From contig JAHPZH010000003.1 of the NCBI GenBank assembly GCA_019058315.1, positions 332,451-396,450 on the forward strand: 64,000 nt of DNA, in the 5' to 3' direction. The stretch comes from Candidatus Helarchaeota archaeon (GTDB lineage Archaea > Asgardarchaeota > Lokiarchaeia > Helarchaeales > RDOG01). The notes beneath the pieces are model-generated. The model had not been told where the DNA came from. It made no database searches and was given only the letters and a program-made list of their open reading frames with translations. The position numbers were made by a program, and so were the translations under genes. Positions 52,573 to 58,072 of this stretch are shown here, piece by piece; within the stretch, counting starts at the first letter, position 1; each line of letters starts with the position of its first letter.

Positions 52573-53109
52573 ATAGAACATCAAGAGCATTACGTCTTCA
52601 AGATTTTACTGTTGGGGGATGGTGCTGTTGGAAAAACTAGTCTACTAAAGAGATTCATTGAAAATACCTTTGATCCTGACTATAAAGGGACGATTGGCGT
52701 CCAATTCATGACTAAAAAAGTTGAACTTGAAAATCAATTTGTTAAATTAGTAATTTGGGATGTTGCAGGGCAATCTCGTTTTACATCTTATCGTCATTTG
52801 TACCTTAAAGATGCAGATGGAGTAATATTAGTTTATGATATAACTCGCTACCCAACATTTGAGAATTTAGAGAAGTGGGTTGAAGACGCAGTTAAATATA
52901 CAGAACAAGATATTCAAATTGCTGTATTAGCTAATAAGAAAGATTTAAGTGGCAATAGGAATGTTACTGAAGAAGAGGGGAGACTTTATTCTGCACTTAG
53001 AGAAGCAGTTCTATTTAGCGAGACCTCAGCAAAAACCGGAGAAAATGTAGAGAAAGCCTTTTTAGAACTAGCAAAAAATATGATCAAAGTCTCAAGACAG
53101 AATAAATAG
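52573..53109 (+). CDS. Rab-like small GTPase, tandem paralog of 51216..51749; probable ATA start at 52573
   Basis: Frame upstream of the track start reads IEHQEHYVFKILLLGDGAVGKT, colinear with the paralog MEKKQHYVFKILLLGDG; GAGGT RBS 7 nt before ATA. Confidence 0.88.
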   Translation: MEHQEHYVFKILLLGDGAVGKTSLLKRFIENTFDPDYKGTIGVQFMTKKVELENQFVKLVIWDVAGQSRFTSYRHLYLKDADGVILVYDITRYPTFENLEKWVEDAVKYTEQDIQIAVLANKKDLSGNRNVTEEEGRLYSALREAVLFSETSAKTGENVEKAFLELAKNMIKVSRQNK

Positions 53110-53125
53110 GAGATTAATATCGCAT

Positions 53126-53881
53126 ATGACTAAAGAGAAAATTATTGAATCCTTATTAATAGTTGATAAAAAAACAGGTAATATTTTTATTAATTATGTT
53201 CCTGCTAAAGATTTTGATAAAGATCCCAACTTAATTATAGGCTTATTAACTTCTTTTTTAAAATATACAAAAGATCTTGAACAAAAAAATTTAAAAATGT
53301 TGGATTTGGAAAGTTTTCGACTAATTTTTACGGAAAAATATGATATTATCTTTGTTGCAATTAGCAACCGATTAGTAAATCCGATGAATTTATTATTTAA
53401 GTTGAATACTATTCAGACTTTATTTCTAAACGAATTTACAGAAGATGAATTGTCTAATCCAAATATTCCTCCAAATTATTTTGATGACTTTATTGAGAAG
53501 ATACGTGAAATAATGAATGGTGATTTAAGAGTTCTAGAGAATAAACAGAGCGTTAAGAAAATTTTAGAGAGATTCAGTAAAGATAAAATCGTTATTGGCT
53601 CAGCAGTTTTATCATTTGCTGGAAATTTTCTTGTAAGTACTTTCACTAAAGATGAAACTAATCTAATTCAAGCTTTATTTAACACCAATTTTGAATTGAT
53701 AATCTCTGGTATAAAAAAGGCATTTATTGAGTTTCTAAATAGGACTTTTTATATTAGAAAAATTGATGATCAAACATTATTTGTAGTCATTATTAAAAAT
53801 GTTGAAGATTTTGAAAAAATACAGATAAAAATAGAGAAAGTTGAAAAAGAAATTATTAATGTGGTTAAGAAAACTAAATAA
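53126..53881 (+). CDS. Longin-like + roadblock-like two-domain protein; paralog of 51753..52511
   Basis: Shared DKK.G..FI.Y.P..DF, LKM.D.E..R..FTEK, FKLNTI...FLNE, SF.G.FLV. Confidence 0.65.
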   Translation: MTKEKIIESLLIVDKKTGNIFINYVPAKDFDKDPNLIIGLLTSFLKYTKDLEQKNLKMLDLESFRLIFTEKYDIIFVAISNRLVNPMNLLFKLNTIQTLFLNEFTEDELSNPNIPPNYFDDFIEKIREIMNGDLRVLENKQSVKKILERFSKDKIVIGSAVLSFAGNFLVSTFTKDETNLIQALFNTNFELIISGIKKAFIEFLNRTFYIRKIDDQTLFVVIIKNVEDFEKIQIKIEKVEKEIINVVKKTK

Positions 53882-53901: not shown

Positions 53902-55464
53902 TTATGGAGGTTTTGATGTAGATTTTTTTTCTTCTTCTTTTTCCATAAAATTTTTCATTGATAGATAATAAGAAGTATCAGATTTTAGCTTTTCTTGAAG
54001 AACTTGCTTTTGAAGTGATTTTAAATTTCTAGATCTTTTCCCATTAGATAATTTCTTTAATAATTTTATACCAAATGGCTTTTCTTTTTCAATTTCTTTG
54101 GTAATAATATAACCTTCCTTGATTGCATTTTGAAAGAGTTCTTCACCAATTTTTGTTCTAGTTATTACTGTATTCCAACCTCCAGGTGATCCAATGGACC
54201 CGGATGATATATCAGAGAGCTCATTTGTTAGGTCCACACATAAATGGCATGCGTGGCGAGCATATTTTGTTACATCTTTGATTGGTACCTGAACTGGTTC
54301 TCCCTCACCGCGATGGACAAAGAATTTTCCCTTATCAATATTCATTTTTGTAGCTTCGGTAAGAGAAGTTTGACAATTCTCTTCTACTATTTTAATTAAA
54401 TTTGGATAGGGAAAACTTTCCATACAAAAAATCCCAATAATATATTTAACATTTCCCCATATTTCTGACATTATATTAGATGTGACTTGATATTTTCGCA
54501 TTGCTTGAACTTGGCAGGGAGTTCCTACAAAGGCAATAGATTTTAGTCCAGAGACTTTTATTAGATCTAGTGCTGATAAGTTTGCTGCGACTGAATATAT
54601 TGTACCTGCGGCTTTAATTGCCTCATCTTTATTTCTAATTAAAATTGGTTGTGTATTCCAAGGTTCACCTTCTTTTTGAACTACTCCAATAGCCCCATCA
54701 ATAAGATTCTTATCAAACAGATAAGTCAAAAGTGTTGTTACTATCCCTCCATCTTGGGCTACTTTTTTAATTTTTTGATCTTTGGTTTGAGCAGAAACTA
54801 CAGTTATATTCAAACCAACTGGATCAGCTTTAAGTTCTTTAATAAAATCAACTTTTTTATCATTCATATATCCTTTTAATACATTTATATGTAGAAAAGT
54901 CCTCGGACAACTCGCCCAACAGAGCCCGCAATGAATACATTTATTTTCATCAACAGTGGGTGTTTCTCCCATTGTGATTGCTTTTACTGGGCAAATACTA
55001 AAGCATGCCCCACAACCACAACATAATTCCTTTTCAACAATAGGAGTTATCGGCTCTAATGGCACTTTATATGTTGTGGCAGAAGTTAATTTTAAAAAAA
55101 TATTACCATTTTCTTCAGACATTATAATTTTTGGTTTAAAACTTAATTCAGAGGTCCCTTGTTTTATATCTATTAAATTATCACCAATTAATTCAGCAAG
55201 GGCTTTGTAAACTTCAAATTCTGTAAATTCAGTATTTTCAATAATTTCTGGAACGGTTAAAAATCCATTTTTTTTAATTAATAATAGAATCCTATGTTTA
55301 ATCAACTCAATATCATAAATTTTATCAATTATTGCATCTAATTCTAAAGGAGAAATACGTCCACTATTCAATATTACCTTCTGGTTTTCCAATAAATTTT
55401 TTATCTTAAAACTTATTGCTGCTTCACAAACTGCATTGAATGTTTCTTTATCTACTTTTTCCAT
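53902..55464 (-). CDS. Coenzyme F420 hydrogenase/dehydrogenase beta subunit (FrhB/FdhB family) with N-terminal winged-helix-like and 2x[4Fe-4S] domains
   Basis: CCGCGACFSICP, CIHCGLCWASCP, AQDGGIVT, VGTPCQ, GIFCMESF, CHLC.D...SDIS.GSIGS; AGGTGA RBS favours ATG 55464. Confidence 0.9.
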   Translation of the reverse strand: MEKVDKETFNAVCEAAISFKIKNLLENQKVILNSGRISPLELDAIIDKIYDIELIKHRILLLIKKNGFLTVPEIIENTEFTEFEVYKALAELIGDNLIDIKQGTSELSFKPKIIMSEENGNIFLKLTSATTYKVPLEPITPIVEKELCCGCGACFSICPVKAITMGETPTVDENKCIHCGLCWASCPRTFLHINVLKGYMNDKKVDFIKELKADPVGLNITVVSAQTKDQKIKKVAQDGGIVTTLLTYLFDKNLIDGAIGVVQKEGEPWNTQPILIRNKDEAIKAAGTIYSVAANLSALDLIKVSGLKSIAFVGTPCQVQAMRKYQVTSNIMSEIWGNVKYIIGIFCMESFPYPNLIKIVEENCQTSLTEATKMNIDKGKFFVHRGEGEPVQVPIKDVTKYARHACHLCVDLTNELSDISSGSIGSPGGWNTVITRTKIGEELFQNAIKEGYIITKEIEKEKPFGIKLLKKLSNGKRSRNLKSLQKQVLQEKLKSDTSYYLSMKNFMEKEEEKKSTSKPP

Positions 55465-55487
55465 GGGATTCACCTAATTTTTTTTAT

Positions 55488-55553
55488 ACCCCTTTGGTTG
55501 CATTCCAAAGAATTTCTGTTAGACTCTAAGTTTTTTTCTAACAGATTTTGGGT
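55488..55553 (-). promoter_or_regulatory. Structured 3'-UTR element after mvhD (candidate SECIS, copy 2)
   Basis: mRNA: ACCC AAAA UCUGUUAGA AAAAAACUUAGAG UCUAACAGA AAUU CUUUGG AAUGCAA CCAAAG GGGU; begins 1 nt after the stop; near-copy at 56011..56078. Confidence 0.75.
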
Positions 55554-55554
55554 T

Positions 55555-55971
55555 TTAAACATTAACAGAACGAATAGGATTAGGACCTAATTTTTGCAGG
55601 TGACCAATCGTATCTTCAACCGCTTGCACAAACCTATTTACTTCAGCCGCACTACATTGGTAAAGGTTGACTCTACCTCCACCTAAACCGGACTTATCGA
55701 GGACTCTTTTGATAAATAGAATTCTTTCGTTAGCCCTGATATTACCATCTTTGAAATCACACTCGCCAAAGTGTCATCCAACAACCATAACAGCATCTGC
55801 ACCAGCTCGAATTGCATGCATTATATGGGCAATATCAATACGTCCAGTGCATCTAAGACGAATTATTTTAACACCAGTATTATATTTCATTCGGCAAGTT
55901 CCAGTTAAATCAGCAGCAGAATAACCTCATTTATCACATGCAAATAGGACCACATTAAATTTGGGATCCAT
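55555..55971 (-). CDS. mvhD: Hydrogenase iron-sulfur subunit MvhD/VhuD/FlpD, selenoprotein with 2 Sec (U15, U66); missed by ORF track
   Basis: MDPKFNVVLFACDKUGYSAADLTG...RLRCTGRID...GADAVMVVGUHFGECDFKDGN...LGPNP (138 aa); TGA at 55927-55929 and 55774-55776 replace conserved Cys. Confidence 0.93.
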
Positions 55972-56010
55972 ATAAATACCTTCTTTTTCATCACCTTTTA
56001 TAAATTTTTA

Positions 56011-56078
56011 ACCCCCTTTGGTTGCATTCCAAAGGATTTTCTATTAGATTAAATCTTTTTCTCTAATAGAATTTGGGT
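56011..56078 (-). promoter_or_regulatory. Structured 3'-UTR element after hdrA (candidate SECIS, copy 1)
   Basis: mRNA: ACCC AAAU UCUAUUAGA GAAAAAGAUUUAA UCUAAUAGA AAAU CCUUUGG AAUGCAA CCAAAGG GGGU; begins 2 nt after the stop. Confidence 0.75.
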
Positions 56079-56080
56079 GT

Positions 56081-58072
56081 TTAAGTTTGAATTTCTTCTT
56101 CTAACATAGCTTCAACTTGGTTATCAATTGTCTCGTCCCTATAGTATCTAAGACTTAAGGCACGTGCAGGACAACTCGCAACACAAATTCCACAGCCTTT
56201 ACAAAGCATCTCATCTACTTCAGCGATACCATTTTCATTAATAGTAATTGCACCATAAGGGCAATTTCTTTCGCACGTTCCACAACCAACACATAATTCT
56301 TCGATAACGCTTGGATTAATAAGCTCCAATAGAAACCTTTCAGCTAATACAAAGTCAGTAGCTGCAATAGCTGCGGCTTTAGCAGTTGATACTGAGTATG
56401 GCACATTCTTTGGACCATGAGCAGCACCGCATATATATACTCCGCTGACTTTAGTTTCTTGTGGGCTCAAACATCCATGTATTTCTTTTAGAAAACCACT
56501 AGGTGCTTTATCAAGTCCTAAAATATCCATTATTTTCTTTGTAGAACTTGCAGGAACCATCGCCACCGATAAAACCACAAGGTCAAATTCTTCTTTAATT
56601 ACTTTTCCTTGAAGTGTATCCTCGCCTCGTAATATAAGATTCTTTGTCTCTGGATCTTCTTTAACTACTCCAATTTTTCCACGAATGAACCGTATATCGG
56701 GATTTTGTCCGCGTATTCTTGAATAATATTCTTCTTGATCTTTGTCAGCAGTTCTTATATCAATGTAGAAGATTGAAAGGTCCATATTATCAAATTCTTG
56801 CATTAGTAATTGAGCATTTTTAATTGCAACCATACAGCAGACACCACCTGAACAATAAGCGTTATCTTTTAGATTTCGTGATCCAACACATTGTATCATT
56901 GCTACTTTTTTTGGAACCTTACCATCACTCGGTCTTGTTATATGCCCACCAGTAGGCCCTGTCGGGCTTAACATGCGCTCAAGTTCAATTTGGGTAACAA
57001 CATTTAGATATTTACCATATCCATATTCGCCAGTTGGATCATATATATCAAATCCCGTAGCTATTATAATTGCGCCGACGTCCAATTCAATTTCTTCAGG
57101 CTCTTGTTCGTATTTTATTGCTCCTGCGAGACAATTTTTTTCACATTGTTTACAATTAATACAGTATTCTTTTGAAATATATGCAACTTTTGGGACTGCT
57201 TGGGGAAATAATATGTTGATTGCCTTTCTAGTACCTAAACCATAATTAAATTCGTTTGGGATATTTATCGGACAAACTTCCATACATCTACCACAGCCCG
57301 TGCAGACATTTTCATCAACGAATTTGGCATTTTTCTTAATTTTAACCTTAAATTGTCCTGCAGTTCCTGAAATATCCTCAACTTCAGAATAAGTAAGTAT
57401 TTGAACATTAGGATGTTTTGCTACTTCGACCATTTTAGGGGCCAATATTCAGATTGCACAATCATCTGTAGGAAATACTCGATCTAATTGTGCCATTTTT
57501 CCTCCAATACTTGGGGATGACTCAATAAGATAAACGGGAGTTCCAGTATTAGCAACACCTAAAGCGGCTGAGATACCACCAATTCCACCACCAATGACCA
57601 TCACCGATTTATATACATCCATTTCTTTTATTGGAACATCTTCCATTTGATTTGCTCTTGCAATACCGCCTTTCATTAATTGGATAGCTTTTTCAGTAGC
57701 AGCTTTAGGATCCTTCGAATGAACAAATGATACTTGTTCTCGTAAGTTAACCATTTCAAAGAAGTATTTACTTATACCAGCAGATTCAAGAAGGGCTCTA
57801 TAAGTCGGTTCATGAATTTTTGGGGTTCATGCACCAACAACAACTCGGTTAAGTCCGAGTTTTTCAATATCTTCCTTAATCATATTTTGTGGAGTAGAAC
57901 TACACATAAATGCGGCTGTTTTAGATAGAACTACGTTTGGTTCGTTTTCTAAAGCTTTAGCGACTTTCTCAACGTCCACCACACCACCGATGTTTACGCC
58001 TCAAAAGCAGACATAAACACCTATCTTTATCGAACTTTCAATATTTTTTCCAATGCTGTTTTCATCTTGCAT
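56081..58072 (-). CDS. hdrA: Heterodisulfide reductase subunit A, selenoprotein with 3 Sec (U24, U82, U208), 663 aa
   Basis: One frame from ATG 58072: IGVYVCFUGVNIGGVVD...FMCS...RVVVGAUTPKIHEPTYR...VNLREQ...VIGGGIGG...FPTDDCAIUILAPKM...; TGA at 58001-3, 57827-9 and 57449-51, all at Cys positions of HdrA motifs. Confidence 0.95.

Follow-up and report, generated by a model that had tools for sequence, protein, structure and literature searches.

How three UGA codons within one open reading frame (ORF) come to be read as selenocysteine (Sec), and from which signal, is the question raised by an hdrA gene in the 64-kb stretch of DNA analyzed here (the window; C11:332451-396450 in a genome of 5.79 Mb, 12 contigs and about 30% G+C). 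The original prediction had all three codons served by a single downstream element inside a polycistronic mRNA. Two near-identical elements are found instead, one behind hdrA and one behind the adjoining vhuD gene, and with an element to each gene the two need not share one across a polycistronic mRNA. Both fold into a three-way junction like that of the Sec insertion sequence (SECIS) of Lokiarchaeia, the lokiSECIS, and AUGA is absent from both. With somewhat more confidence than doubt, hdrA, vhuD and an frhB-like gene are taken here to form a genuine selenoprotein operon, in which the core-less elements would work as SECIS without an AUGA/GA core.

The three TGA codons lie where they had been placed, in an intact 663-aa frame, but the gene runs on the minus strand (Table 1). 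Translation of that frame meets exactly these three in-frame TGA and no other stop or frameshift; a plus-strand reading of 56081-58072 is ruled out, as it yields no frame. The product has an N-terminal Fe-S domain, a domain resembling thioredoxin reductase that binds flavin adenine dinucleotide (FAD), an inserted ferredoxin and a C-terminal ferredoxin. Pfam finds Fer4 and Pyr_redox/FAD (pyridine-nucleotide-disulfide) domains, and residues 14-657 align to the solved chain 9sfi_A (E 6e-214) and also to 5odc_A and 8rvu_a, so that the full four-domain architecture can be aligned to solved HdrA. The best NCBIfam match is HdrA2, with 811 bits below its equivalog cut-off of 1100. Neither of the methanogen equivalogs NF041778 and NF040770 is reached (HdrA2 811 against 1100 bits, HdrA 612 against 1400 bits), and scores below these cut-offs do not imply CoM-S-S-CoB as the substrate. 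Judged by these profiles, the gene is a member of the HdrA family and not an equivalog of the methanogen enzymes.

Each UGA falls on a column that is otherwise occupied by Cys or Sec. Solved HdrA chains carry Cys at columns 24 and 82, and at column 208 either Cys or, in 9sfi_A, X (Sec); the roughly 18 HdrA paralogs of this genome all show Cys or TGA there. Column 208 is that of Cys197/Sec197/Cys205 of methanogen HdrA (PMC4989117; PMC13518236; PMC13580544). Orthologs thus show Cys (or Sec) at all three sites and, together with the intact frame and purifying selection, this identifies a selenoprotein gene. The ratio of nonsynonymous to synonymous substitution rates (dN/dS) of hdrA, computed from codon 11 owing to N-terminal length differences, is 0.03-0.06 at a synonymous divergence (dS) of 0.8-2.5, and that of vhuD is 0.05-0.07. 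The segments between the UGAs of hdrA (codons 25-81 and 83-207) give 0.008-0.055, and such low values mean that UGA24 and UGA82 must be read through.

Elsewhere UGA stays a stop, as had been claimed: TGA terminates 5 of the 42 long frames of the window, and the frame at 19594-20007 (+) ends in TGA where its paralog at 440-853 (-) ends in TAG. These two encode paralogous proteins of about 137 aa (MR.I.EIWII...GITLFN...); they have no match to VhuD by tblastn, and so are not MvhD homologs.

The host is an Asgard archaeon whose class-level relatives are Lokiarchaeia, probably of the order Helarchaeales. The methanococcal frame of reference chosen in the original prediction therefore has to be replaced, since both the neighboring genes (a RagA/Arf-like GTPase) and the relatives are Asgard. 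Its genome encodes the machinery for Sec. A tRNA-SeC with anticodon TCA (63.5 bits) lies directly beside SepSecS and a short EFSec/SelB (a 469-aa frame), a PSTK candidate is present, and the SelD gene itself has one in-frame TGA.

Multi-Sec HdrA has precedent in this group. Lokiarchaeota HdrA genes, which invariably stand in tandem with a two-Sec vhuD, can have as many as four Sec spread over five positions (PMC4989117, Mariotti et al. 2016), and 1439 Asgard selenoproteins are catalogued (PMC11227280, Huang et al. 2024). Multi-Sec HdrA having been described in Asgard archaea since 2016 (PMC4989117, PMC11227280), three Sec are not new in kind, and the HdrA of the window is a further example of a known Asgard type. 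Sec-HdrA genes with 1-5 TGA occur in 61 of 61 class genomes searched. At 29 orthologous loci of relatives (55-66% identity) TGA24 together with TGA208 is the rule; codon 24 is TGA at 26 of the 29, and also in L055-L060. Codon 82 is a rarer Sec site, its TGA recurring in L047, L053 and the closer relatives L056/57 with Cys elsewhere, while L041 and L048 have TGA at codon 310.

The closer lineages, retrieved with the 454-residue C-terminal ORF as query, are L055 (ENA, 90% identity), L056/57 (two JGI metagenomes, 87%) and L058-60 (three Logan runs, 85%). All share the gene order GTPase - 388 aa - 56 aa - hdrA - vhuD - frhB-like, and in each of them codons 24 and 208 are TGA; at codon 82 the window and L056/57 have TGA, L055 and L058 TGT. 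Assembly error is argued against for TGA24 and TGA208 by their presence in independent ENA, JGI and Logan assemblies, and for TGA82 by JGI L056/57. Contigs from three other studies also span the TGA sites, with no change there among the differences listed (contigs only). Absent Sec machinery, non-Cys residues in orthologs and erroneous TGAs had been named as grounds for giving up the Sec assignment; with the machinery present, Cys or Sec in the orthologs and the TGAs in independent assemblies, none of the three holds.

The gene itself is not the novelty of the locus; the signal behind it may be. Both elements (Table 1) are about 66 nt long, near-identical and begin 2-3 nt after a stop codon, and the spacer between hdrA and vhuD measures 109 nt. 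Hairpin 1 of the vhuD copy differs from that of the hdrA copy by one compensatory change from A-U to G-C, and hairpin 2 is the same in both across 6 shared base pairs and the loop (CUUUGG-AAUGCAA-CCAAAG). The minimum free energy (MFE) of the hdrA element is -22.1, with z -4.3, and the vhuD element has z -4.0; in each the MFE structure equals the centroid. As regards distance, the long-range decoding that had been proposed stands: about 1.93, 1.76 and 1.38 kb separate the UGAs from the hdrA-proximal element downstream of them.

Table 1. Features of the hdrA-vhuD-frhB-like locus, in positions of the window
Feature	Position	Strand	Description
hdrA	58072->56081	minus	663 codons + TAA stop; from translation, Pfam and PDB alignment
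UGA codon 24 (Sec)	58003-58001	minus	VCFUG; C-x-U motif, N-terminal domain
UGA codon 82 (Sec)	57829-57827	minus	VGAUTP; AA[C/U]TP motif, N-terminal domain
UGA codon 208 (Sec)	57451-57449	minus	DDCAIUIL; DDCxxU, the canonical HdrA Sec position
hdrA-proximal SECIS-like element	56011..56078	minus	three-way junction, starts 2 nt after the hdrA stop
hdrA element, outer stem	56078-75 / 56014-11	minus	ACCC pairs with GGGU
hdrA element, J1	56074-71	minus	AAAU
hdrA element, hairpin 1	56070-62 / 56048-40	minus	9-bp stem, 13-nt A-rich loop
hdrA element, J2	56039-36	minus	AAAU
hdrA element, hairpin 2	56035-15	minus	CCUUUGG-AAUGCAA-CCAAAGG
vhuD/mvhD homolog	55555..55971	minus	138 codons, TAA stop; PF02662 3e-40; VhuD NF045873 2e-48
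vhuD UGA codon 15	55929-55927	minus	Cys at this column in paralogs
vhuD UGA codon 66	55776-55774	minus	Cys at this column in paralogs
vhuD-proximal SECIS-like element	55488..55553	minus	same architecture; outer stem ACCC/GGGU, J1 AAAA, J2 AAUU
vhuD element, hairpin 1			stem UCUGUUAGA/UCUAACAGA, 13-nt loop AAAAAACUUAGAG
FrhB/FdhB-family (F420-binding) iron-sulfur protein gene	53902..55473	minus	PF04432, PF04422; PRK09325 299 bits

Much of the lokiSECIS is present in the two elements. They have the 9-bp stem, the A-rich apical loop and the position after the stop codon; the loops measure 11-13 nt and start with A4-6. A loop-terminal AG is seen in the vhuD copy, L056 and L058 and altogether in 5 of 7 aligned elements (4 of 6 distinct ones), with AA in the hdrA copy. 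They also have a second hairpin and a closing stem, features derived from 25 relatives and lying outside the published definition. What they do not have is [A/G]UGA immediately 5' of the main stem. AUGA is absent from both, J1 reading AAAU or AAAA in its place. On the 3' side of the main stem AA stands in both window copies and AG in L056 and L058, AA being an allowed variant (PMC4989117, PMC11227280). The contigs of X2, an independent study, differ at window position 56026 by T>A on the gene strand, which turns the hairpin-2 loop from AAUGCAA into AAAGCAA and keeps its GC.

The canonical form is defined here by an alignment of 25 canonical vhuD-proximal SECIS of relatives, drawn from L026-L054 and L058, on which the covariance model R2 is based. 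None of the 25 departs from G-AUGA on the 5' side or from AC on the 3' side, and 15 of 19 pairs show compensatory change, spanning all three helices (the closing stem UCCGA/UCGGA, hairpin 1 and hairpin 2). At these 25 loci the second hairpin, of 4-6 bp within the three-way junction, has a loop that always contains GC (nnnGCnn); published lokiSECIS descriptions, in their available parts, give only the main stem-loop and a "lower stem" (PMC4989117, PMC11227280). R2 gives canonical elements of relatives 46-62 bits and finds, in the same genome, 58 bits at C5:666163 (after the other Sec hdrA-vhuD pair) and 50 bits at C3:41488 (after the third Sec-hdrA). The elements of the window align to it over the full length with the three helices in register and a 6-7-nt gap exactly over UAGAAUGA; the hdrA element scores 17.5 bits and the vhuD element 23.5 bits, the best R2 match in the whole 64-kb window, where no other match of this kind exceeds the two. 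No canonical SECIS is found by R2 in that window, and an ATGA-anchored pattern scan near the operon gives no match. The genome scan with R2 scored 150 of about 10,000 candidates and missed known canonical elements.

Other signals were sought as well. Rfam yields nothing on the window at the gathering threshold and only chance matches at E<=10 on five loci; since it also misses canonical lokiSECIS, this result is uninformative. No SECIS family of Rfam has a match at either threshold, and no scan was aimed at the euryarchaeal GAA_A-type SECIS. No bacterial-type hairpin occurs in the 65 nt after any of the five UGAs of hdrA and vhuD (z -1.6 to +1.0).

The core-less form is not peculiar to one genome. 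The hdrA-proximal element is common to L055, L056/57 and L058-60, and hence to independent ENA, JGI and Logan data, in the shared form ACACCC AAAU UCUAUUAGA ... UCUAAUAGA A[A/G][A/U]U hairpin-2 GGGUGU. An alignment of seven core-less elements (six distinct) has 95% of its cells paired and compensatory change at four pairs. The agreement base by base is read from the contigs of these lineages. After vhuD the lineages diverge. L058-60 keep a canonical AUGA...GA SECIS (60.6 bits), whereas L056/57 and the window have a core-less copy. In the latter two, which differ by dS > 2, every element is core-less and yet all five UGAs are retained. Searches with the hairpin-2 sequence and with a core-less covariance model (R1) find only the two window copies in the genome; R1 finds no match in 100 genomes of relatives under strict filters that could have dropped weak ones. 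Scans for an exact pattern of the core-less hairpin give none in genome contigs and, in metagenome contigs, one chance match without hdrA or vhuD.

Having one element per gene is a trait of the whole order. At all five orthologous loci of the same order a 107-207-nt spacer folds into the same three-way junction after the hdrA stop, whereas in a large sister family (24 loci) the spacer leaves no room for an element and the only SECIS, in agreement with published cases, follows vhuD. In the other families of the order the hdrA-proximal core is intermediate, reading AUGA..AG in one and AUGC..AA in another, and the vhuD element is canonical.

From these observations the following mechanism is proposed. 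The operon would encode an HdrA2-like flavin-based electron-bifurcating module, and its UGAs would be decoded by the archaeal/eukaryotic-type pathway (tRNA-Sec, PSTK, SepSecS, SelD and the short EFSec), with a three-way junction of about 66 nt behind each gene directing the decoding from the 3' side. Both elements may descend from the Lokiarchaeial lokiSECIS. They would then have retained the second hairpin, the closing stem and the 9-bp stem with its A-rich apical loop, while 6-7 nt, AUGA included, would have been deleted from the 5' junction strand and AA/AG would stand in place of GA on the 3' side. Sec would then most likely be inserted at up to three UGAs located 1.4-1.9 kb upstream in the absence of an AUGA/GA kink-turn core.

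Several points weigh against this proposal. AUGA is invariant in the 25 aligned canonical elements and in the published lokiSECIS set, so its loss should abolish function if a kink-turn binder is required. In the sister families the hdrA-proximal core is deviant and the vhuD core canonical, as might likewise be seen if the spacer element were no SECIS. Lineages that have no canonical element at all number only two, the match of the window elements to the canonical model is weak (E-values 0.002-0.08), and the sequencing runs that contain the locus are represented by Logan DNA contigs, with no RNA run listed.

In the most serious alternative, an ordinary multi-Sec HdrA receives its Sec through a distal, trans-acting or unknown signal, and the core-less hairpins serve some other purpose (transcript end or processing, mRNA stability) or are relics. 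It would be in keeping with the invariant AUGA of canonical elements (PMC4989117), with order-wide relaxed hdrA-proximal cores beside canonical vhuD cores, as expected if only the vhuD SECIS matters, and with TATA-like boxes after both elements, by which these may mark transcript ends. However, the vhuD element itself is core-less in the window and L056/57, and both lineages retain their UGAs; the 64-kb window contains no canonical element and no hairpins follow the UGAs. The elements have furthermore kept signatures of the lokiSECIS (the 5' A-run, the terminal AG in 5/7, the 9-bp stem and the position after the stop), and their occurrence at only two sites in the genome does not suggest a general terminator. 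This alternative is considered improbable, though it deserves more weight than the others.

A second alternative has the UGAs read as something other than Sec, or as Sec and something else, as in near-cognate read-through as Cys or Trp; this operon could then do without a SECIS. The canonical core has indeed gone from both elements and all sites are Cys columns, so that insertion of Cys would be tolerated. Against this, UGA is a functional stop elsewhere, the genome has the full Sec machinery, UGA has been kept at known Sec positions across dS > 2 with no drift to UGU/UGC, and structured 3' elements are maintained with covariation; we regard such decoding as very unlikely. Gene decay with the UGAs as stops, or TGAs produced by sequencing or assembly errors, has the missing canonical SECIS as its sole argument and is effectively refuted by 663 codons with no further stop or frameshift, by dN/dS of 0.008-0.06 in every segment including those between UGAs, and by the same TGAs in ENA, JGI and Logan assemblies and contigs of other studies that cover the sites.

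Decoding through core-less SECIS, the preferred explanation, can be set beside known systems. The closest is the HdrA/VhuD tandem of Lokiarchaeota (PMC4989117; PMC11227280), which has the same gene pair in the same order and Sec at the same columns (the canonical one near 200 and N-terminal Cys columns). Also shared are an hdrA stop that is UAA and never UGA, decoding of UGAs up to about 2 kb away, the lack of SBP2, and an element that follows the stop closely and has an A-rich apical loop on a 9-bp stem. By contrast, the cases published have ONE SECIS, after vhuD only, and a very short hdrA-vhuD spacer, compared with an element per gene and a 109-nt spacer in the window. Their core is an invariant AUGA...GA/AA (or [A/G]UGA) where the window has AAAU/AAAA...AA, and their apical loop has 11 nt instead of 13. 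Methanococcales and Methanopyrus share orthologous enzymes, Sec at the canonical HdrA position, a two-Sec VhuD and one element per gene in the 3' untranslated region (3'-UTR), but they are methanogens with a single-Sec HdrA and a SECIS with a GAA_A internal loop and a G-C-rich upper stem. Eukaryotic SECIS, as in SelenoP, likewise serve several UGAs from a distant 3' position, have an apical A-rich motif and may number more than one per locus. They differ in the AUGA/GA kink-turn bound by SBP2; in the window this core is absent and the elements flank two separate ORFs.

The AUGA/GA core is the main argument for regarding Asgard SECIS as forerunners of eukaryotic SECIS. We know of no SBP2 in archaea, and of no archaeal factor that reads this core. 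Published surveys report [A/G]UGA_[G/A]A cores, leave about 15% of Asgard selenoprotein genes with no eSECIS-like structure and allow that further SECIS patterns may exist; in the portions of the Asgard SECIS literature available, neither an AUGA-less form nor one element per gene is described. The dual core-less SECIS-like elements thus appear to be a new variant, with a function suggested by conservation and selection. A natural functional SECIS with no kink-turn core would point to an Asgard SECIS reader that needs none; to both, and to the binding of an HdrA cluster by one or two selenolates (below), we give even chances. If the proposal is true, the "eukaryote-like core" would be dispensable in the very group regarded as the link between archaeal and eukaryotic Sec systems. 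The operon would then amount to a natural deletion mutant with built-in controls, as the other selenoprotein genes of the same genome keep the core (AUGA/UUGA..GA). One shared SECIS per hdrA-vhuD pair is in any case not general, the whole order having one element per gene, and searches for AUGA motifs will miss genes of this kind. A three-Sec HdrA by itself adds little, Asgard HdrAs with up to four UGAs (here up to five) being on record.

All three Sec had been described as lying in Fe-S-ligand motifs, a claim that holds in part. The N-terminal cluster domain of HdrA has exactly four Cys/Sec residues (C22, U24, C57 and U82). Three or four of these are needed as cluster ligands, and at least one would then be Sec. 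Residue counting thus suggests that at least one of U24 and U82 ligates the N-terminal [4Fe-4S] cluster; the assignment of ligands to this cluster (HA3) comes from counting Cys and not from coordinates. For U208 the claim is disputed. A summary of the crystal structure makes this position the fourth ligand of the N-terminal [4Fe-4S], contributed by the partner protomer (PMC9012536), whereas cryo-electron microscopy places it in a redox-active CxxC/CxxU pair with an unknown ligand or a possible selenosulfide. The pair is located between the [2Fe-2S] of MvhD/VhuD, the FAD and the N-terminal "shuttle" cluster HA3/A3, and the same studies also name MvhD Cys16 (PMC13580544, PMC13518236), which corresponds to VhuD U15 in the window. 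In the proposed module U24, U82 and U208 would gather around one electron-gating site, with U208 as a mobile CxxU residue between the N-terminal cluster, the VhuD [2Fe-2S] and the FAD. Sec at 24, 82 and 208, near the shuttle cluster and the CxxU pair, would thereby bear on the passage of electrons between MvhD/VhuD, FAD and HA3.

The neighboring genes are consistent with such a module. On the HdrA2 profile of NCBIfam the HdrA of the window covers positions 1-644 and VhuD 649-774. HdrA2 of Methanosarcina is an HdrA fused to MvhD and is F420H2-dependent; it is the best NCBIfam match, and here an FrhB-like F420 subunit adjoins. The window differs from it in splitting the module between two genes and in having Sec in place of five Cys. 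The FrhB/FdhB-family gene downstream of vhuD is syntenic in L056-L060 and is a probable third gene of the module. An hdrA-vhuD pair resembling a split HdrA2, followed by an FrhB-like gene, suggests an F420-linked bifurcating module. TATA-like boxes are seen on the minus strand at 55992-56000 (TTTATAAAA) and at about 55471-55482 (GTATAAAAAAAA), between each element and the next start codon and about 25-40 nt before the ATG. hdrA, vhuD and the frhB-like gene may accordingly be transcribed as three units, every one with a 3'-UTR element to itself, although such boxes could be chance in a genome of 30% G+C. Around the operon lie genes of eukaryotic signature. A Gtr1/RagA-Arf-like GTPase gene is located upstream (59599-60510, -), and at the opposite end the L056 counterparts of a small ORF at 52612-53109 (+) and a 251-aa ORF at 53126-53881 (+) are annotated as Arf/Ras family, with a faint Fuz_longin match. 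This flanking arrangement is syntenic in all close relatives.

Further Sec genes and HdrA relatives are found elsewhere in the genome. In a second Sec hdrA-vhuD pair (C5:663781-666240; U24 and U208, U15 and U66) the spacer is short and only one SECIS is present; its core is UUGA..GA rather than AUGA..GA, and it scores 58 bits with the canonical model. A third Sec-HdrA (C3:41573-43934; U24 and U208) is encoded in the reverse gene order, with a Cys-type vhuD upstream. Its hdrA has its own canonical AUGA..GA SECIS directly after the stop, and is an exception to the pattern of vhuD always downstream with one shared SECIS. Canonical AUGA..GA hairpins also follow small TGA-holding ORFs at C2:186051-186386, C3:786452-786865, C2:355636-356118 and C10:42143-42442, whose motifs (...ERFSUC..., ...SIGUGG..., ...DAGCUU... 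and ...GIILUU...) make them candidates for further selenoprotein genes. Two large tandem arrays of HdrA-like genes (C3:4382-35068 and C5:1377712-1391915) have the FAD-domain part split from the N-terminal/ferredoxin part, and each holds Cys-type MvhD genes. They recall the complementary "Cys197 / N-terminal domain" heterodimeric HdrA pairs of anaerobic methanotrophic archaea (ANME; PMC9012536).

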